Shown: piece by piece, positions 22,989 through 64,000 of the stretch
How positions within the stretch are numbered: position 1 is the stretch's first letter
Layout of the letters: the number at the start of each line of letters is the position of its first letter
Assembly (NCBI GenBank): GCA_951406725.2
Contig: OX597822.1
Coordinates: 103,292,001-103,356,000 of the forward strand
Length of the DNA stretch: 64,000 bases
DNA from: Octopus vulgaris
Taxonomy: Eukaryota
Direction of reading: 5' to 3'
Program-made: the position numbers and the translations under genes
The notes under the pieces: model-generated
The model's database searches: none
The model's input: the letters and a program-made list of their open reading frames with translations, nothing else
What the model was told of the DNA's origin: nothing

Positions 22989-23592
22989 AAGGCGGCGAGT
23001 TGGCAGAAACGTTAGCACGCCGGGTGAAATGCTTAGCAGTGTTTCGTTTGCCGCTACGTTCTGAGTTCAAATTCCGCCGAGGTCGACTTTGCCTTTCATC
23101 CTTTCGGGTTCGATTAAATAAGTACCAGTTATGTACTGGGGTCGATATAATCGACTTAATCCGTTTGTCTGTCCTTGCTTGTCCCCTCTGTGTTTAACCC
23201 CTTGTGGGTAGTAAAGAAATAGGTATTTCGTCTGCCGCTACGTTCTGAGTTCAAATTCCACCGAGATCGACTTTGCCTTTTATCCTTTCGGGGTCGATAA
23301 ATTAAGTACCAGTTACGCACTGGGGTCGATATAATCGACTTAATCCGTTTGTCTGTCCTTGCTTGTCTCCTCTGTGTTTAACCCCTTGTGGGTAGTAAAG
23401 AAATAGGTATTTCGTCTGCCGCTACGTTCTGAGTTCAAATTCCGCCGAGATCGACTTTGCCTTTCATCCTTTCGGGGTCGATAAATTAAGTACCAGTTAC
23501 GCACTGGGGTCGATATAATCGACTTAATCCGTTTGTCTGTCCTTGCTTGTCCCCTCTGTGTTTAGCTCCTTGTGGGTAGTAAAGAAATAAGA
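22989..23592 (+). mobile_element. SINE family A1 trimer (one head, three ~180-bp bodies)
   Basis: Repeated junction AAAGAAATAG|GTATTTCGTCTGCC at about 23222 and 23407. Confidence 0.92.
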
Positions 23593-24401
23593 TATTGTAG
23601 TGGAAATCGTCTGTAGGATGTTGCTCTCTTCGGTTTTCAGTTCTAAGTTTCTGTATCTATTTTTGCTGCTCTTGTTCAGCAAGTGTTGTCTTAGAAAGAC
23701 TGCACTGGTCTCTCCACATCCTTCATCACTTCTTAACTAGAGCCAGTCTATATCACTGTTTTTGTGAAAACGTCCAGTTGGTGTCTGAATCTTGTGGGTC
23801 TTAATGTCTTTGCAGCAGATTTCCTCTACAGACCAGTCAAGTTTCCCAAATGTGGGAATCAGTACTGTCATTGCATATGAACTGTGGAATATTTTCTTAT
23901 CATAAGAGAAGAGTTCGACCTATAATTTGTTTTAAGTCTCGTAAAATATTCTCGAGTCACTCTGTCTCTTTTCACAGCACCTTCCTATAAGTTTTCATCT
24001 ATGTTCAGATATTTGTAGTTTTCTTTGTGTGGGACAGTGGCGATAGAGAGACAATTGATGTACAGGTTTTGGGTTAAGAGGAGGGGTTCAACGTTCAACA
24101 ATAAAATACAAACGTTTCTCTAGGCCAAATTCCATTCCTATGTCAGCTGAAAATGTTGTTAACTCTAGTTGTTTTATTTTGGTATTTTTAACATTTTTCG
24201 TATAAATCTTGAGATCATTCGCAAACAAATTATGTTACATTAGTATCTCTAGCAGTTGGCAACCCTAGCATGAAACCAGTTGATTTTTTATAGCAGGAAT
24301 GATATTGGACTGAATTCTAAACTAAACAGAATTACAGAAAGGTTCCTTCGAGTTTCGTTTAGAAATATTTATACCATCAGAGATGATCGTTCTGCTTTTA
24401 G

Positions 24402-29270: not shown

Positions 29271-29585
29271 TATTGTCCGTATAAAAAGGACGGTTAGTTG
29301 TATCCGAATGCAAACTAATTTACCAAATTGTTTGTCGTCTCTGTGTTTAGCCCCTTGTGGGTGATAAAGAAATAGGTACATAATACCAAGTCATCCTCGC
29401 ATTTTATGTATCCTCTCTGATATCATTGGAGTTAAGGCTTTGTAAGCCGTAGAAGGGTAGATTATGGGTCTATAATGTTTAGGGTTTGTTTTTCCCTTCG
29501 TCTTGGAAGCTGATAATTTATGTACTTATTTGGATTCGAAGACTTATTCAACCCATTAAAGCAGGGAGACAAGGAGAGAGAAAGC

Positions 29586-46672: not shown

Positions 46673-46841
46673 TAATTTACAGAGAAATATTGTCCGGAGA
46701 TGGATAGATGGCGAGAAATTTTTACAATTATCGTGAAAGGGAAACGGAAAGAAGGTTAAGGCAGGGAAAGATGGGAAGAGGTACGAAGAAACAAGTGAAA
46801 GGAACAGAGAAAAGACAAAGGAGTGTATAAACATAGAGAGA

Positions 46842-47160
46842 GAGGAGGAGGAGGAGGAGGAGGAGGAGGAGGAAGAAGAAGAAGAAGAAGAAGAAGAAGA
46901 AGAAGAAGAAGAAGAAGAAGAAGAAGAAGAAGAAGAAGAAGAAGAAGAAGAAGAAGAAGAAGAAGAAGAAGAAGAAGAAGAAGAAGAAGAAGAAGAAGAA
47001 GAAGAAGAAGAAGAAGAAGAAGAAGAAGAAGAAGAAGAAGAAGAAGAAGAAGAAGAAGAAGAAGAAGAAGAAGAAGAAGAAGAAGAGGAGAAGAAGAAGA
47101 AGAAGAAGAAGAAGAAGAAGAAGAAGAAGAAGAAGAAGAAGAAGAAGAAGAAGAAGAAGA
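46842..47160. repeat. (GGA)n-(GAA)n trinucleotide tract, ~320 bp
   Basis: Directly visible pure polypurine run. Confidence 0.98.
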
Positions 47161-47307
47161 GAGAAAGAATCAATATAGTTGTAATTAAAGAAAAAGGAAA
47201 GAATGGAAAGGCCGAACTAGACAATATGAAAAGGAGTAAGCAAAATAAATAAGTATATATATGTATATAATATATATATATATATATATATATTTATACA
47301 CACACAC

Positions 47308-54743: not shown

Positions 54744-55191
54744 AACAAAACAAAGCAAATTTAAAGTCAATGACTCCATCTAACATTCTTGCTGCTTATT
54801 TCATATTTCCATTCATTTTGTCTCAAAAAATATTTTTTGTGAACTTCATGTTGTCTTCTGAGATATATGCAAATTATATAAATTTTTTAACAAGGCGGAC
54901 GACTAAAGCCCACGTTTTCAGATTTAAATGTTGAATAACGTAGGATTGTGACGTTGATGCCTTTCTGATATACAATTGCTGTTTTTGTTGTGGTTTGTAA
55001 AGCTCTAAGTCGGCTCTGATCGTCAGATTTACAAGTCAAAATTGCTCTGGCTCCGATATACCCATCAGCTCATGTACGACAGATCACATTTGACCAGTGA
55101 GTCGCACGTCTCAATCTTTCTTTCTCTGTCAGTCTGTATGTCTGTGTGTCTGTCTATGTGTTTGTCTGTTTGTCGAGGTCTGTTTATTAGA

Positions 55192-55606
55192 GGGCGGCGA
55201 GCTGACAGAAACGTTAGCACGCCGGGCGAAATGCGTAGCCGTATTTCGTCTGCCTTTACGGCCTGAGTTCAAATTCCGCCGAGGTCGACTTTGCTTTTCA
55301 TCCTTTCGGGGTCGATTAAATAAGTACCGGTCACGCACTGGAGTCGATATAATCGACTTAATCCGTTTGCCTGTCCTTGTTTGTCTCCTCTGTGTTTAGT
55401 CCCTTGTGGGTAGTAAAGAAATAGGTATTTCGTCTGCCGTTATGTTCTGAGTTCAAATTCCGCCGAGGTCGACTTTGCTTTTCATCCTTTCGGTGTCGAT
55501 TAAATAAGTACCAGTTATGCACTGGGGTCGATTTAATCGACTTAATCCGTTTGTCTGTCCTTGTTTATCCTCTCTGTGTTTAGCCCCTTGTGGGTAGTAA
55601 AGGGAT
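55192..55606 (+). mobile_element. SINE family A1 dimer with TSD
   Basis: One head and two bodies. TSD AGGTCTGTTTATT at 55176-55188 and 55607-55619. Confidence 0.92.
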
Positions 55607-56199
55607 AGGTCTGTTTATTTGTCTCTATCTCTTCCTTTTGTCCTTCTCCTTTAAAGGCGATAGGAGTCTGGCTGTTATTTCCAGTTGGGCAAACAGCTGC
55701 ATAGAGGCTCACTCATTGTAACATAAATTGTTGATGCTTAATCCCAGATGAACTCTGAATGACTAATGATCAAAGAATTTCCAGCTGGGATCATTCCACT
55801 TTTATTGCAGGCAGTATATTTTAGCATAATGTCCTCCCACGTATCCTGTCTTTGTTTTGAAAAGGCCGATAGGATGTCAAGTGAGTGAGATTTGGCTGAT
55901 GTTTCTAAACAGCTGAGCCACCTTCTAAATGCTTACATCATCTTTAGGCTACGATGTACATTGTTGCTGCCATCTAGCCCCAATTCATCCTTCATTCAGC
56001 AGAACCTCAACCAGAAAACCATCTCGTTGTTGGAATGTAATCTTCCACATCATCATCGTAAAGTCACTAAGGAATGATTTGAGGTTGATTAAACAGCTAT
56101 TTTAGCAGGTCATGGGACCATGTAGAAGCTTACTTGTTGGCTTGCAATGCATCTATCTGAATCATTTTGACATAAAGTAGTCTTCTGCAATGTACATTG

Positions 56200-57883: not shown

Positions 57884-58997
57884 ATTATGTCATAATCTGT
57901 GTTTATCTGTGTCATTTGCTTTCTTTCTGATCCGCACTCAAAACACTTATAAAATGCCTTGCCACCTACATGCACGCATGCATATTAGTGTGTGCATGCA
58001 TGAGTGTATATACGCATAATAAGCGTTGGGGGATTGGTTAGCAGTAGCGGAATGGGTCTAGAAATATCGGTTGCCAGGGGACTAAGGGGACTAAGGGGAC
58101 CCACTCGCAACTACAATGCTATCATTTAATTTTTATAACGAATAAAGAAACTTTTCAAAAATACGTAAATAGAAACAAAAAGATGCAATTCAAATGTATT
58201 TTTTTGGTGCTCTTGAAGTTGCGATTTTTGAAATTTTTTTTCATAATAGGAATCTTCATTGCCTAAAACGTGGGTTTCCATAAAAAAAATTTTTTTAAAA
58301 GGTGGGCGGAGAGAGGTTCCAGATTACATATACTCCAAGTGCGCCTATTTTTCAATAATTACAATGTACATGTATTGTGCATCTTACTGGCAGTATACAG
58401 TAATACCAATTGTAAATTCAGAATGAATGTTTAAATAAATACTTTGGTGAATATATATTATAGTGTGCTGCTATTTTCGACGTGTACTGTTATTTTGAAA
58501 ACGTTTACCTAAACTAAAAATAAGACCAATAAATCTATAAACTAATTTCATTATTTTAAATGAAGACATTTTACTGTCAATGAGATAATTTTGCCTTCTC
58601 ATGAAAATCACAGAATCGTATTCAGAACCATGTCGTCATACATATGCACCATTTGTTTGCTAGTTTGCTTTTTACGAAAGAGATTTGTTTCAAACAACCT
58701 GTTCATTTATTGTTTTTAATTAAACGAACATATGCCAAGAATTCTGTCACCACCACTTCGATTGCTAAAAATAAAGAATAAATTTACATGGTTTTAATTT
58801 CTCCTACATTTAATATTATACTTTCATCTATTATTCTTTTTTCTCTGCTCTTGCCATTATTTTTTTTATGAAACCCTTATAACATTTTCAAAATAGCAGC
58901 ATACTATGCTTTTGTGTAGGACATCCACAAAATGAGATAAGTGGACTGTTCCATTACGGATAAATAAGTAAACAGACACGAGGTAGGCTGTTAAAAA

Positions 58998-60705
58998 CAG
59001 TTATTTTGTCGTTCAGTTGCATTGGTTTGGTACACACGTGTTTTTGGCTGTCCTGGTGGAGCGACGTTTTCTCCCTTGTATAACGGAGGGGCGTCGAGCG
59101 AGAAATTGGGAGAAGCTGAGGTATTCTTCCCTAGAATGTGATTCGTCTGAGGAGGAATTAGTTGAATACTTAAACAAGATGGACAACGAAATGGGGAAGA
59201 GAAATTATGCAGCGGCAGCTAGAGAAAAAGAAGTTGAAGAAATGAAACTGGAAGAGCTGTGTGAGTTCAAGGAAATGATTGATGGGAGGAGAACGATATG
59301 AAGGTGTTCCCCCCCCCCCCAATATTAAAGGACAAGGAAGAAAGAAGTATTGTATACATAACTTACGCCAGAGCAACAAGAAAATTGAAGAGGTGTCGGA
59401 AGCACGGGTGGAAAAGGCACTGAGGTCAGTCTGACAGGAGATAGCATACCTTGCCAGAGGCCGAAAATTTGGAACGGTGGAGGTGCATTTTAGGGAGATA
59501 GCTACTGCCAGACTGTATTCGGCCACACGACTGAAGACAGATGAAGTGGTACTTCTACCCATGTACCTTGGGAGACATACTTCCAGGGTGCGAGTGGAAG
59601 GCATACCACCAGAAATGAATGTAGCCTGGCTGGTGGCTGCCATACTACTGGGCATGGAAGAGAAGGTGGTGCTTCTGCAGGCCACCAGAACGTCCCACAC
59701 GCATTAAAAGGGACAAACCATTGAAATGGTGGTACAGGTCGCGTAGGAGGTATTGGTAAAAATAGTCGAAAGTATCCGAGTGGAAAGGAGGTTTCCACAA
59801 TGATATAAATGTGGCGTGAAAGGTCACATTAAAGTGGAGTGTCCTCCACTACTAGAAAGGAACAAGGAGAGACAGGAGGAAAAAGTGGTTGGTGTTACAC
59901 TGCCTGTGGAGGAAGAAATACGGGAGGTGGAACCACAGAAGACAGGCACAAGTGTTGAGAAGGAGGAAGAATCAGACACCAGTTGGGAAATGGTGGAGAA
60001 AAAGAGCAGGAAGAGAAGGAAAAAGACACACAAGGTAAAAGATGACACCAAATCACATCCACACGGTCCTCACCCACACCCACTCTACCTCAACCACGCC
60101 CCACAGACACCAACTCTCCCCATGCCCAGCCTGAAAAAAAACTATGGCAAACACACAGGAGCCTCAAAACTACTCACCATCGCCCTGTAATGAAGAATTC
60201 ATATTAATGTACAATGGACAGATTGAGGAACTGGATAACGAAGTAAATTCGTTGGATGGAATAGTCAAGGTGGATATAGTCGGTGTAAGGGGGTCTGCCC
60301 GAGAACAATTATTGTGTGCTGATGGATCTGGAGAACCTGTGGAAGGTGCATAGGTATATAGCAAATTGTGATGTGAATGGTGGTCCAAAAAAATAGACAC
60401 CACACAATGCCGAAAAAAATAAGGTACGTGGACATTAAAAAAATATATAATATAGACATTTTGGGAAAAGAGAGGGATTAACTATTGCGTAAATAATTGT
60501 GTTCAAATGATATATCAAATTGGCTGTTACAAAGGGTGATGCAAATGGTGTTGCTACAAGTTCAATGAAGTCGCTCGGAGGCGGGGGCCGAGCGACTTCA
60601 TTTCATCCTTCATCCTATAATTTCATTCATTTCATTCGTTTCGTTTTTTGTCCCCACCATGTGCTGTCCCCTCTGTGTAAGACCTTTATGGCCATAAAAC
60701 AAAAA
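58998..60705 (+). mobile_element. ORF1-only L1/Tx1-like non-autonomous retroelement, unit 1 (degenerate)
   Basis: GRKFGTVEVHF...LLPMYLGRHTSRVRVEGIPPE, zinc knuckle (C>stop)YKCGVKGHIKVECP and A-rich tail. No EN/RT motifs seen. Confidence 0.7.
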
Positions 60706-60712
60706 GTGAAGA

Positions 60713-61515
60713 CAGTTATTTGTCAATCGTTGAGTGGTTTAATTTGTTGAAGGCTTCTGGCCAGGTACGTCGAACTACTAAAAATTGTTACTATTATTGT
60801 AAAATTTGTTGTGTTTTTTTTCAAAAGCACACAGCTTGTTTAGCAGGCTTGTGTTTTTATTGTATTTTCTCCCGTTCAGGATGAAAAGTAGGATGCCTGA
60901 AATGAACATTATATAGAAAGGGAGCGGTCGAAAGTGGAGTTAGCTCCTCCGGAGAAATTAACCAAAGACGTGAGAAGAAAAACAAAGTGCATCTTGGTAG
61001 ATAATCTGAAATATGAAACTTTAAAAAACACTTCAAATCGTATATTGATTCACTGGGGGTAGAGGTGAGGTTTGAAACCCTACCTCTGGTGGTGGAATTT
61101 AATGAACTAAAACCGTATTGAACAGTAATAACGTGAATGCTTGAGGATGGGGCTCTAACGATAGCGTTCATCCTCATTTATATATATTTTTTCTCTTTAC
61201 TACCCACAAGGGGCTAAGCACAGAGAGGGCAAACAAGGACAGACAAAGGGATTAAGTCGATTACATCGGTCCCAGTGCGAAACTGGTACTTTATTTATCG
61301 ACCCCGAAAGGATGAAAGCCAGAGTCGACCTCGGTGGAATTTGAACTTAGAACATAGCGGCAGACGAAATACCGCTAGGCATTTCGCCCGGCGCGTTAAC
61401 ATTTCTGTCAGCTCGCCGCCCTTTATCGTTTTATATTTTATGTCCCCTCGTGTATTGACTCTGTCTGTCCTTGCACCTCTATGTTTCGCCCCCTGTAGGC
61501 AATAAAGAATCAAAG
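60713..61515 (+). mobile_element. Short retroelement unit 2 sharing termini with units 1 and 3
   Basis: 5' CAGTTATTTGTC and 3' CTGTCTGTCCTTG...GCCCCCTGTAGGCAATAAAGAA. Confidence 0.5.
61192..61421 (-). mobile_element. SINE family A1 nested in unit 2
   Basis: Homology to 55192-55425. Confidence 0.88.
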
Positions 61516-61517
61516 AA

Positions 61518-63247
61518 GAGTTCTTTTGTCAAATCATTTGTGATTCAGTTGCTTGTTTGATATTTTATTGAGGGTTTACTCGCGCAAGACTGCCCATTGT
61601 TGGAACAATTGTGAAGTTGTTATATGTAGTCTGTTTGGCAGTTTTGTTTCTTGTGTTTTTTCCCCCATTTGGGGGTGAAAATTGGTTCCCATCTCAGTAT
61701 GGAAGTGGACACCACACCAAGCTATGCGACTGCCGCAGGAGCGGGAAAGAATGTTGCTGCCTCGTTCACCAGGATATGCTGGATGCATGTCAACAGTTTA
61801 TTCAGGAGGGGACAGCGTTGAAGGTAGCCCTTCCCGAAGAAAGTGTAGAATAGAAAAGGAAAAGAACCGTGGTCTACAGGACGCAAGCGACCTCATCGCG
61901 GAGGATAGAAGTGGCCTCTGAGAGAGACATAGAGAGATGCTTACTGCTGGTAATGGCGGAGGCAACCTTCATTAACAGTGGAAAGAAGTTCGGCACGATG
62001 GAAGTGCGGTTCGTCACCGAAGAAGAGGCAGTGAAGCACTCCACGAGAGTGTTAAGGTCGGTAGACTTAACACTGCCGACCTACATGGGAAGACGAAACG
62101 CGAGAATAAGAATCAGAAGGATTCCACCAGAAATAAAAGGAGTGTTGTTGGTGGCTGCCATTATGTTTGCCACCCAGGAAGATGCAAAACTAATGCATGT
62201 TGGAAGAACACAACATGTGAATTGATGGAGATATGACCTGGGAATCTTGCTCCAGGCCACACACTATGACCTCGAATAGTTGCCGTACGAGATTAGCATA
62301 CCAGAGGAAAATACGCTAAGGGTAGTAGTATAGGGAAGGAGACCAACTGCCACCTATGTGGACGCAGAGGACACATAAAGATTCACTGCCCCGACTACAA
62401 GCCACCCCAAACCTAGAGGAATGTGGCGGAGATCCAGGCTGAGAAGACAACGAAGCCCCAGACCGAAAACTCTATGGAGGAGCCGCTGAACGAAAAATCT
62501 ACGACAGAAACAAGGAGCGTTGCTGAAGATACGAGGAAAAAGGAGATAAAAGGTACCCCAACTAAAGAGGAAGAGAAAACACCCACAGAAAATAAACACG
62601 AAAACACCTATTCATGGACATATCACTCCCGTCCACAGAACTGAAAAACAAAAACATACCATTCAGTCCGGCCTAGCCGGACAGGTACTCAAAGATACAC
62701 ATGCTCACAGACACACATAAGCAAGAAAACACACACACAACCAAACCACTTAGGCCCCCACAGAAAACCAAACAAACAGCATACACAACATTTTATAACA
62801 AAAGCGTGAACATAGAGAACATGTTAACGAAATGGAAGAAAACAAGGGTAAAACCGCCTGCAGGGGATTTCCCCGTCAACAAAAAACGCGTCCTGTGGGA
62901 CTTGGAAAAAATATATAAAGTTAAAGACTTTTGGGTTTGATGTGGACCTCATAGGGCAGGACGTGGGGGTTGATACCCTGTCTCTAGCCTCTGAATACAG
63001 AGGTGAAAGCACTAAAAGTAAGCGACAGATATTTTAAAGTAAAACATTTTTAGATGAACTATGAAAAAAAAAAAAGATTTAAAAGTGCATTAAATGTAAC
63101 TGCTCGAGTAGCCATTGCATCCACACATCCATATAACACCACCTCATCAATTCATTCGCTTTATTTTTTTTCCCCGCTGCATGTTTTGTCTGTTCTTGTA
63201 CTATCCCATCTGTGTCGGGCCCCTAGTGGCTGATAAAGAAATAAAAG
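61518..63247 (+). mobile_element. ORF1-only L1/Tx1-like non-autonomous retroelement, unit 3 (degenerate)
   Basis: GKKFGTMEVRF...TLPTYMGRRNARIRIRRIPPE, CHLCGRRGHIKIHCP and tail TTGTCTGTTCTTG...GCCCCTAGTGGCTGATAAAGAAATAAAA. Confidence 0.7.
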
Positions 63248-63481
63248 TACACAATTAAGAACAGTGTCGAGCGAAGATACAATGATGGACTACATGCTGT
63301 GGATAATATTAAAATTCCTGTTGAAGAGCATTCGATCTATACGCAAGGGAAGGATCTAAAGGAGAGCATTAGAATTTTTTTTTTCCTGGGAAAAATTGAA
63401 AACGAAAAAAAAAAAATTTCTGTGATAAAATTCTGTCAAAATAATAGTTCTATGTTGAAGAAAATGGAAATTGAAAAATTA

Positions 63482-63527
<46 letters not shown>

Positions 63528-63807
63528 TAATAATAATGATAATAATAATAATAATAATAATTCTGTGTAATTTTTTTTGGGTGGGTGTTATGTAGGACAC
63601 CTCCAAAGTGAGATGTAGCGGACAGACACGACCTCGGCGAAGACAGTGGTCTTTGACGAGAAGCCAAAAGGAAAACATATACATGTACCAATTTTTATTT
63701 TATTTTAAATAATTGGTGGATATTTTTAAATAGTTTAATTGTACTGCAGACTTTACACATTGACAGATAATTCAAACGTACAAAACTTGTATCACATGCA
63801 ATACACT

Positions 63808-64000
63808 ATATTAAGAACAATCGTTTGAGTTCACTAGATGATTAAGCGAAAATGTCAATAACTGCTTCGGTATCCAATTCATCTAAGAATTCCTTTTCAA
63901 CGGATAGCAACATGTACGCTTCCAAGTTCTCCTCAGACAGCGAACTTCTTAGCCTTGTCTTTATAATCTTTAACTTTGAAAGTATCCTCACACATTGAAC
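63808..64000 (-). pseudogene. hAT (Tip100/ZMYM1-like) transposase C-terminal dimerization domain
   Basis: LSKLKIIK/RLRSSLSEENLEAYMLLSVEKEFLDELDTEAVIDIFA*SSSELKRLF. Confidence 0.8.

Follow-up and report, generated by a model that had tools for sequence, protein, structure and literature searches.

Probable ORF1-only retroelement copies that share their 3′ tail with SINE A1 form a head-to-tail trio in Octopus vulgaris

The locus considered here lies in a window of 64,000 nt from Octopus vulgaris (contig OX597822.1; the window is the whole stretch of DNA that was analysed), and it raises two questions: what kind of element combines an ORF1-like protein with the tail of a short repeat, and how did three such units come to stand nose to tail on one strand? 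About 11.6% of the O. vulgaris genome consists of SINEs (PMC13282606), whose partner LINEs are not named in the literature that we found. The three units, which have a common 5′ motif, are:

58999..60713, + strand: unit 1, 1715 nt, a decayed, probably ORF1-only element of a multi-copy family
60714..61518, + strand: unit 2, 805 nt including a SINE and about 570 nt without it, an internally deleted family member consisting of head, 5′ UTR, N-terminal ORF1 remnant, hairpin and tail
61519..63254, + strand: unit 3, 1736 nt, a decayed, probably ORF1-only element of a low-copy or older family

The preliminary description of this locus as three abutting same-strand units is borne out at these coordinates, and the head that it had reported as shared, AGTT(A/C)TTT(T)GTC, occurs on the + strand of the window at 58999, 60714, and 61519 only. 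The junctions are real, since contigs of other samples bridge them: the junction of units 1 and 2 (60708–60718) is contained in one contig in each of two out of four runs, and those between units 2 and 3 and between unit 3 and the right flank are spanned by contigs of runs X4 and X8, with 27–29 differences in about 1.97 kb. In contigs of other samples, position 59003 is C in four out of four runs, and position 60718 is C in two out of four, hence the resemblance among the unit heads is closer in relatives than in the window. The sequence on either side of the trio is ordinary and continuing, and does not form a chromosome-end array; inside the cluster, there is no head-to-tail junction of a SINE with a unit. 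Scanning the window with Rfam and ARAGORN yielded nothing, and no snRNA or tRNA target was seen.

The coding remnants of the units are as follows:

59191..60190, + strand: ORF1 remnant of unit 1 (family profile iE 1e-63) with stops and frameshifts, whose true C-terminus may lie further 3′; it comprises the NYAAAA start region, the pre-RRM motif at 59274, and two predicted RRM-like domains at about 59372–59790
about 59804..59845, + strand: CCHC knuckle of unit 1, its first Cys replaced by a stop, with a charged tail after it
60910..60984, + strand: pre-RRM ORF1 motif of unit 2 (25-column profile from 19 relatives)
61699..62940, + strand: ORF1 remnant of unit 3 (family profile iE 4e-68), its end approximate and resting on weak C-terminal likeness; it comprises the SYATAAG start region, the pre-RRM motif at 61794, two predicted RRM-like domains, and a charged region
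62348..62392, + strand: CCHC knuckle of unit 3

Units 1 and 3 had been said to encode diverged homologous proteins with a common set of motifs. Their homology is clear, as an alignment of the cores over 111 codons shows 37% identity (E 3e-18 within the window), and the motifs in question (KFGTxEVxF, LPxYxGRxxxRxRxxxIPPE, LVAAI) occur in them along with one CCHC knuckle each, but they carry ORF1 remnants rather than proteins, both ORFs being interrupted by stops and frameshifts. The pre-RRM motif of unit 2 scores highest among about 127,800 six-frame positions with 25 columns (21.6 vs. 11.6 for the next) and second with 30 columns, while its blastp E-values by themselves are not significant. 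The ORF1 family numbers 215 cluster representatives at E ≤ 1e-3 (P0111, being unaligned, was excluded from all profiles); of 30 relatives looked up, 16 are named to species: 15 octopod proteins and one plant protein, the latter without an aligned stretch; none is mammalian. Units 1 and 3 are broken copies from this large octopod protein family, whose members are predicted to have two RRM-like domains and one CCHC knuckle.

The region preceding the knuckle is predicted to be RRM-like, and the fold matches listed are RRM and ferredoxin-like domains. In the predicted fold of the relative P0009, pLDDT is about 90 or more for most of residues 80–280, and RRM proteins match it best (Foldseek E 8e-6; for the La RRM, Z 9.7, rmsd 2.4, 81 aligned); a single-sequence fold of the relative P0151 was set aside (mean pLDDT 45). 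A C-terminal ORF1 block appears conserved by eye in full-length relatives, and its likeness to units 1 and 3 is not significant. Structure and feature look-alikes, to be taken as leads only, include ZCCHC3 RBD1/2 plus CCHC (0.90), CCHC-type clusters, DUF4283, and PRE_C2HC. ZCCHC3-type proteins resemble the family in having two RNA-binding domains followed by a CCHC knuckle, but they are products of a host gene, which we take to be of retroelement origin, and neither ZCCHC3 nor RRM-type families nor Transposase_22 occur among the 25 of 34 Pfam families listed for 52 relatives. The predicted layout of two RRMs and a CCHC knuckle is that of type I ORF1 of non-LTR elements, in agreement with the L1/Tx1-like ORF1 proposed earlier; type I ORF1 (RRM plus CCHC) accompanies Tx1 in non-mammalian animals and is necessary for Tx1 without being specific to it (PMC5203782).

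The ORFs could instead be remnants of an LTR-element gag, or a family of host genes could have given rise to them as processed copies, since a CCHC knuckle is also found in retroviral nucleocapsid and in ZCCHC8, and the relatives P0009 and P0151, from two Octopus species, are intact ORFs with 93% identity. This is hardly credible, however, given that gag sequence matches are limited to the knuckle, that the fold is predicted to be two RRM-like domains, that no long terminal direct repeats surround any unit, and that host mRNAs would not be expected to have the tail of a SINE.

The absence of an endonuclease or reverse transcriptase before the tail, noted at the outset, holds: at E ≤ 1, no EN or RT family is found in the + frames of 60001–61202 and 62351–63252, and only about 900 nt separate the knuckle from the 3′ end. 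Similarly, no EN or RT Pfam match is present in the 29 scanned of 150 listed relatives. ORF1 and ORF2 are normally separate proteins, so it says little that none of 7324 candidates for fused ORF1-EN-RT proteins (1092–3115 aa) scored. No octopod DNA was found in metagenome and bacterial genome collections.

The summed contig depth of unit 1 in all nine bins is 14–83 times (run X1) and 10–72 times (run X4) that of a single contig; the corresponding values are 3–9 times for the 5′ bins of unit 2, and 1.5–10 (X1) and 1.8–14 times (X4) for unit 3. In run X1, five of the eight listed contigs of unit 1 overlap at 60336–60402, in its 3′ part, with 43–60 differences each vs. three in the same-locus contig, and represent five distinct paralogs diverged by 10–16%. 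Listed diverged contigs of the four runs combined bridge every position of 60085–60672 without a long insert, that is, unit 1-like contigs pass from ORF1 into the tail with no ORF2 between. A multi-copy, ORF2-less structure is therefore established for unit 1, while unit 3 is represented among the contigs listed by one paralog, with 101 differences over 61951–62452, in the ORF core only. Four of 22 Logan contigs are near 1.7 kb in size, which we do not take as a sign of element length. Contig loose ends and joints, among the rows listed, are those of the SINE only (3481 and 271 further rows).

These depths also bear on the possibility that the trio is one master locus, copied as a single read-through transcript or DNA segment. 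Such copying would agree with the single duplication around the whole trio, but is very unlikely, as a lone contig, with the depth of a single copy (50.3 in X4), covers the junction of units 1 and 2, and single contigs cover that of units 2 and 3, whereas unit 1 itself reaches 10–80×.

Units 1 and 3 are members of deep separate lineages (37% amino acid identity), yet they have almost the same 1.7-kb plan. In a 60-row tree, built from these two units together with 58 of 157 proteins covering the core, they are placed in different parts, with terminal branches of 0.26 and 0.25, respectively. The distance from head to pre-RRM motif is 275 nt in both, from head to KFGT 466 and 467 nt, from the second Cys to the end 903 and 897 nt, and the total lengths are 1715 and 1736 nt; the chance of the total-length match under a crude independent-deletion null is 0.046, a modest value. 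This matched layout suggests that ORF2 was lost before the two lineages split. Differences between units 1 and 3 at the three codon positions (0.44/0.42/0.65 over 109 codons) show that ORF1 was under purifying selection on the branches that separate the two. The earlier argument for selection on ORF1-only lineages is thereby only half valid, as it holds only if the loss of ORF2 preceded the split.

Alternatively, the units may be recurrent internal deletions of two-ORF L1/Tx1 elements, each lineage having lost ORF2 recently and independently, with ORF1 selected in autonomous parents. Precedents exist: HAL1 arose several times in mammals (PMC5753468), and dozens of Drosophila telomeric lineages lost ORF2 (PMC13534243). 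Unit 2 is itself internally deleted, and two-ORF parents could lie among the contig loose ends beyond the SINE rows listed. Nevertheless, we consider recurrent deletion rather unlikely because of the near-identical layout of units 1 and 3, neither of which retains an ORF2 remnant, and because several unit 1 paralogs share the ORF2-less form, which at least argues against a unique deletion.

The reading of the units as ORF1-only elements is further specified by their 3′ ends:

60627..60713, + strand: 3′ tail of unit 1 (pyrimidine tract, CTGTC...CTGTGT, ATAAA, A-rich end; leave-one-out 18.6 bits)
61426..61518, + strand: 3′ tail of unit 2 (leave-one-out 17.9 bits)
63147..63254, + strand: 3′ tail of unit 3 (leave-one-out 17.5 bits)
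61187..61422, − strand: full-length SINE A1, antisense, in the 3′ region of unit 2
60564..60602, + strand: stem-loop of unit 1 with a perfect 15-bp stem (z −3.88; 0 of 200 shuffles fold as well), a candidate recognition element
61142..61176, + strand: hairpin of unit 2, positioned like the stem-loop of unit 1 (z −2.62; 3 of 200 shuffles)

In leave-one-out testing, a model built from two unit tails recovers the remaining one in three out of three cases, at 17.5–18.6 bits; when the window was shuffled 20 times (Markov-1), the three-tail model scored 7.9 bits at best. A model of the SINE A1 tail alone scores 28.4 bits on unit 3, 27.3 on unit 2, and 10.0 on unit 1, the last being a weak match when set against the shuffle maximum of 7.9, which comes from a different model. 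The relationship of the unit tails to each other and to SINE A1 is thus beyond chance, and the tail models indicate homology between the 3′ ends of SINE A1 and of a LINE-type element, here one that is itself non-autonomous. In contrast, the small hairpin ascribed to the terminal tail is not significant (z from −0.95 to −1.43 in the unit tails, +0.26 in the SINE). A significant hairpin is located 140–160 nt from the end in unit 1 (z −3.9) and unit 2 (z −2.6), not in unit 3 (z −0.4); the 5′ ends of the units fold no better than shuffles. The SINE A1 copy in unit 2 is 85–90% identical to copies at 23039–23595, 55188–55605, and 1–194. As to the name of this SINE, its short motifs are absent from the searched supplement files of PMC4824008 and from the supplements of PMC5786205.

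Taking together the type I ORF1, the lack of ORF2, and the tail shared with a SINE, we support the HAL1-like interpretation in the sense of ORF1-only, non-autonomous elements: the units probably are decayed copies of 1.7-kb ORF1-only families with a SINE A1-like tail, copied by a separate ORF2 of the L1/Tx1 type. Having only ORF1 and a 3′ end in common with a highly abundant short repeat, they likely borrow the copying enzyme of a larger retrotransposon. A full-length partner class exists in octopus, as 13 recently active L1-Tx1 families are known in O. vulgaris, with 421 insertions, 2.29 Mb in total, about 5.4 kb each (PMC13282606, Table 1). Since no autonomous element with this tail or ORF1 was found, we infer the partner and its clade from the ORF1 type and the octopus repertoire; an L1/Tx1 partner seems ambiguous by ORF1, as ORF1 types are common to several clades and the look-alikes include PRE_C2HC (Jockey/I-type). 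Transcription of the elements would start from an internal promoter located at the AGTT head that they share, their RNA would be packaged by their own ORF1 protein, a foreign ORF2 protein might be recruited via the 3′ hairpin and tail, and target-primed reverse transcription would then leave an 11-nt duplication.

With an ORF1-type protein, no EN-RT ORF, a defined tail, and one 10/11 duplication around the trio, the units fit the class of non-autonomous LINEs that retain ORF1. HAL1 elements end in a plain poly(A), and Jockey-type gag has three knuckles; the units differ from HAL1 in the sequence-specific tail shared with a SINE, the predicted type I ORF1 (two RRMs plus CCHC), and the octopod host, and the trio differs from HeT-A in consisting of three units at an interior site within a flanking duplication, with a one-knuckle ORF1. 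HAL1 in the strict sense is a derivative of mammalian L1 found in mammals, and here 15 of the 16 named relatives are octopod and none mammalian. HAL1 is likewise non-autonomous, encodes ORF1p only, occurs as dispersed copies, and depends on a LINE ORF2 (PMC5753468, PMC5786205), but it stems from mammalian L1 and its ORF1 is of type II, Transposase_22 (PMC5203782). HeT-A and telomeric Jockey elements of Drosophila resemble the trio in that ORF1-only families from several lineages stand mixed, head to tail, in arrays, and such lineages can seed new ORF1-only families (PMC13534243). Ag-Sponge of Anopheles (CR1 clade) is also a bipartite LINE derivative with ORF1 present and no ORF2 (PMC5786205), although of another clade and in another host. 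In crocodilians, a Tx1-clade element, Tx1-Mar, mobilises SINEU with tandem insertions around a duplication and entry into other repeats; the text consulted (PMC4494074) contains no ORF1-only tier, and target preference, which is typical of many Tx1 members, is shown there, not for the octopus units.

How the trio arose can be approached from its edges and from other SINE A1 copies:

58991..59001, + strand: candidate left copy of the target-site duplication, 11 nt, TTAAAAACAGT, its last 3 nt overlapping the unit 1 head
63255..63265, + strand: candidate right copy, TTAAGAACAGT
22991..23592, + strand: SINE A1 array, one full copy and two 184-nt 3′ repeats, the tail joined to an internal site
55193..55611, + strand: SINE A1 array, a full copy and one 184-nt repeat, with a single flanking 14/15 duplication unlike that of the trio

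The outer pair matches at 10 of 11 positions (p 0.003–0.006; reached by 65 of 20,000 random window pieces and 124 of 20,000 shuffles), whereas each inner junction agrees with the same 8-nt pattern at five of eight positions (chance 0.22 each). One such duplication around the whole trio slightly favors a single template-jumping insertion, in which the reverse transcriptase would have run off the 5′ end of unit 3 RNA onto the 3′ end of unit 2 RNA, and then onto unit 1 RNA; the entry of SINE A1 into unit 2 would be a separate event. The three intact heads and the similar terminal branches of units 1 and 3 (0.26 and 0.25) also fit one event, and template switching by LINE reverse transcriptases is an accepted route (PMC4824008). 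On balance we lean towards one template-jumping insertion rather than sequential insertion at the same spot.

Still plausible, though less so, are ORF1-only families inserted three separate times at a preferred site, be it a short AAC/AGT-type motif, the head of a copy already in place, or a DNA-transposon repeat. All four trio junctions end in a similar A-rich stretch followed by AGT, and with the alleles of X4 and X7 junction 1 matches at six of eight positions (chance 0.045); the flanks are low-copy repeats; close copies become fewer from unit 1 to unit 3, unit 1, the most upstream, belonging to the family with most of them; and PMC4494074 describes tandem SINEU-3 copies that sandwich a duplication, as well as DNA transposons being targeted by Tx1. 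However, the outer pair, supposedly the oldest, matches best, and SINE A1 with the same tail occurs at unrelated sites, the trio being one locus seen. For the same reason, neither target specificity of the elements nor the suggestion of the preliminary description that members insert at each other's ends, taken as a general rule, finds support: the SINE A1 copies of the window lie scattered among flanks that are unrelated, and one of them has its own 14/15 duplication.

A wider reading, which we regard as speculative and rather improbable, is that of an old octopod radiation of ORF1-only elements, comprising dozens of deeply separated lineages that all keep to one 1.7-kb plan, free of ORF2 since before the Octopus/Argonauta split, whose ORF1 proteins would co-package RNAs of different families and the abundant SINE in shared particles, the borrowed reverse transcriptase jumping from RNA to RNA. 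Were it true, mixed head-to-tail arrays would be written at interior sites, HeT-A-like but away from telomeres, and the ORF1-only tier could be the source of the SINE tail or of its packaging protein.

The strategy of borrowing an enzyme while keeping ORF1, known in flies and mammals, appears to be undescribed in molluscs; we found no description of ORF1-only elements in cephalopods in the literature, although Repbase, Dfam, and the Zenodo library of PMC13282606 may already hold such families. An ORF1-only family with the tail of an abundant SINE provides a handle on the autonomous driver, which can be searched for through that tail. The family is also a natural test of two questions: why non-autonomous elements retain ORF1, which has been studied for the most part in mammals and at the telomeres of flies, and whether inter-family template jumping builds arrays in vivo. 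ORF1-only elements would escape RT-based LINE surveys, and current annotation labels the family proteins as uncharacterized or misnames them as host genes.

Two minor observations concern the surroundings and the SINE. Both flanks of the trio are low-copy repeats, and the go-back joint of SINE A1 (61373 to 61194) is present in 9–26 contigs per run in four runs.

The three abutting plus-strand units are a real feature of the window: they belong to octopod families of retroelements with a type I ORF1 only (that is, lacking the ORF2 with endonuclease, EN, and reverse transcriptase, RT), share their tail with an abundant SINE, and stand mixed head-to-tail.

58999–60713, plus strand: unit 1 (U1)
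60714–61518, plus strand: unit 2 (U2)
61519–63254, plus strand: unit 3 (U3)
61187–61422, antisense: SINE A1 inside U2
29328–29378: orphan 50-nt shared tail without a SINE body

As the preliminary description had it, the same-strand units have a common head, the motif AGTT(A/C)TTT(T)GTC being found at 58999, 60714, and 61519 and nowhere else on the plus strand of the window. Judging by sequence, their tails are related beyond chance, with leave-one-out scores of 17.5, 17.9, and 18.6 bits, compared to the top score of 7.9 bits for the three-tail model on 20 window shuffles. The tail is also common to SINE A1: in the window, non-unit matches of this model above noise are SINE A1 tails and the orphan tail, probably a strongly 5′-truncated insertion, and a model derived solely from SINE tails recovers U3, U2, and U1 (28.4, 27.3, and 10.0 bits, respectively). 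The terminal tail hairpin described earlier was not significant in the folding test; a stem–loop 140–160 nt before the 3′ end reached significance for U1 (15 bp, z −3.9) and U2 (z −2.6) and was weak for U3. U2 has the pre-RRM motif of the family, which a 25-column profile ranks first among ~127,800 positions and a 30-column one second; blastp alone does not separate it from random segments. The window is SINE-rich, and Rfam and ARAGORN gave no match anywhere in it.

The ORFs of U1 and U3 are broken and homologous (37% identity over 111 codons), and Pfam detects neither EN nor RT in the ~900 nt between the knuckle and the 3′ end of either unit, in agreement with the initial view of diverged homologous proteins and no EN or RT ahead of the tail. 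A phmmer search with the U3 core yielded 215 representatives at E ≤ 1e-3 among 1.84 billion; species were named for 16 of the 30 relatives looked up (10 Octopus bimaculoides, three O. vulgaris, one O. sinensis, one Argonauta hians, and one plant, the latter without any aligned stretch). Longer relatives consist of a SYA-type start, the core, one CCHC, and a charged region, and Pfam recognizes the knuckle alone, in 10 of 52 family members. The AlphaFold model of the relative P0009, made with 52 sequences, is confident over approximately residues 80–280; RRM proteins are its structural matches (lowest Foldseek E 8e-6; for La RRM, Z 9.7, rmsd 2.4, 81 aligned), and it has a second ferredoxin-like domain at 184–266. 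Look-alikes from the ESM Atlas, taken as leads only, are CCHC clusters, ZCCHC3 RBD1/2+CCHC, DUF4283, and PRE_C2HC. According to PMC5203782, an ORF1 combining RRM and CCHC is the type I form among non-LTR elements and is associated with Tx1 in animals other than mammals. The identity of the unit protein as a non-LTR ORF1 is well fixed, and its assignment to Tx1 only loosely. An LTR-element gag is highly unlikely, as retroviral gag sequences match the knuckle alone and the units are not bordered by LTRs. P0009 and another relative, P0151, are long uninterrupted ORF1s from O. vulgaris and O. sinensis, respectively (93% identity), one of them annotated as “EPM2A-interacting 1-like”; the family may be young, or a copy may have been retained. 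Three gene models (P0028, P0032, P0043) fuse an ORF1 piece to WD40, LDL-receptor class A, or astacin domains, and are likely annotation chimeras, possibly exonised insertions.

The ORF2-less form of U1 is a family, because distinct diverged contigs from runs of other samples overlap and bridge the end of ORF1 and the beginning of the tail. Five of the eight listed contigs of run X1 overlap at 60336–60402, with 43–60 differences each (~10–16%; three in a same-locus contig), and the listed diverged contigs of four runs combined bridge every position of 60085–60672. Summed contig depth, which is not copy number, is 14–83 (X1) and 10–72 (X4) times that of a single contig in all nine bins of U1, 3–9 times in the 5′ part of U2, and 1.5–14 times in U3, where one paralog is listed, over the core, making U2 and U3 candidate families. 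At the rate of 0.0036 per million years quoted in PMC13282606, distances between U1 paralogs would roughly correspond to 15–25 million years. SINE A1 dominates the contig loose-end and joint rows, among which two-ORF parents of these families may lie hidden. In a tree of 60 rows, U1 and U3 are placed in different regions, and they differ by 0.44/0.42/0.65 at codon positions 1/2/3; nevertheless, their layouts agree within a few bases (275/275, 466/467, 903/897, 1715/1736 nt; the chance of matching total length alone is 0.046 under a crude null), which argues for an ORF1-only plan inherited by both lineages.

Non-autonomous LINEs retaining ORF1 are a recognized class, in which PMC5786205 and PMC5753468 include HeT-A (Jockey), HAL1 (L1), and Ag-Sponge (CR1); PMC13534243 mentions dozens of Drosophila telomeric lineages that lost ORF2, with two to six families per ORF1-only clade. 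The octopod units work like HAL1 and HeT-A, yet belong to neither. For O. vulgaris, Table 1 of PMC13282606 gives 13 recently active L1-Tx1 families (~5.4 kb average per insertion), and PMC4494074 mentions Tx1-driven SINEs, tandem insertions, and transposon targets in crocodilians. Our literature searches returned no description of such ORF1-only elements from cephalopods, and their novelty is provisional, since Repbase, Dfam, the Zenodo library of PMC13282606, and the supplements of PMC9115989 may contain these families. Of the three tiers initially proposed to insert at each other's ends, ORF1-only elements and SINE A1 are present and share the tail; the autonomous Tx1 tier is inferred, as are its clade and any rule of targeting.

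The cluster is no assembly artefact, as runs carrying four organism labels provide contigs across it: U2/U3 and U3/right flank are spanned by near-identical ones (27–29 differences in ~1.97 kb; X4, X8), one contig each in X4 and X7, and none in X1 or X8, spans U1/U2, and one contig in four out of four runs spans the left junction. Neither are three abutting same-strand copies due to chance, since nothing else in the 64 kb matches the family profile. An 11-nt repeat surrounds the trio with 10 matches (58991–59001/63255–63265), a level reached by 65 of 20,000 random pieces and 124 of 20,000 shuffles. We lean towards one insertion event, in which template jumping between units would leave the outer duplication as the sole true one; the intact heads of all three units and the similar terminal branches of U1 and U3 also fit it. 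Sequential insertion, to our mind plausible if somewhat doubtful, would make the outer pair the oldest, and hence its best match counts against this scenario, whereas partial matches to the outer-repeat pattern at the inner junctions (five of eight positions, chance 0.22 each; six of eight, chance 0.045, at junction 1 with the X4 and X7 alleles) and the drop in close copies from U1 to U3 count against one event. The single-contig depth of the junctions makes copying of a master array unlikely.

SINE A1 itself forms arrays of a full copy and 184-nt 3′ repeats, with the tail joined to an internal site.

22991–23592: SINE A1 array
55193–55611: SINE A1 array
1–194: SINE A1 array

This joint recurs in 9–26 contigs of each of the four runs, so arrays form habitually across the genome, possibly by template jumping, by self-targeting via 3′ microhomology, or through a circular intermediate. 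The array at 55193 has a single outer 14/15 duplication, and, by eye, 10 out of 12 positions of the internal restart site agree with the unit heads. Strict target specificity is not supported, as the flanking sequences of the three SINE A1 copies whose two ends could be placed are unrelated.

The trio may lie inside a decayed DNA transposon. In its motif, the minus-strand translation of 63812–63997 is similar to a hAT transposase C-terminus; its sole Pfam match is C2185-like_N (E 0.1), and a PDB search gave none. Just left of the trio, a MITE-like element (58460–58907) has 18-nt inverted arms (94%), extendable to ~45 nt, and is covered by contigs at several times single-copy depth. A 27-nt direct repeat (81%, blastn E 0.48) on either side of the trio (58912–58938, 63588–63614), each copy followed by ACAGACACGA, possibly reflects chance or subterminal repeats of a host element. 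Other features of the window are as follows.

58086–58271: high-depth repeat (>100 times a single contig in X1), starting near tandem GGGGACTAA units
~10500–11560, minus strand: open reading frame between TAA repeats, presumably akin to the 3′-terminal part of a Dong/R4-type non-LTR element
~46780–47200: long purine run of GAA/GAG-type triplets
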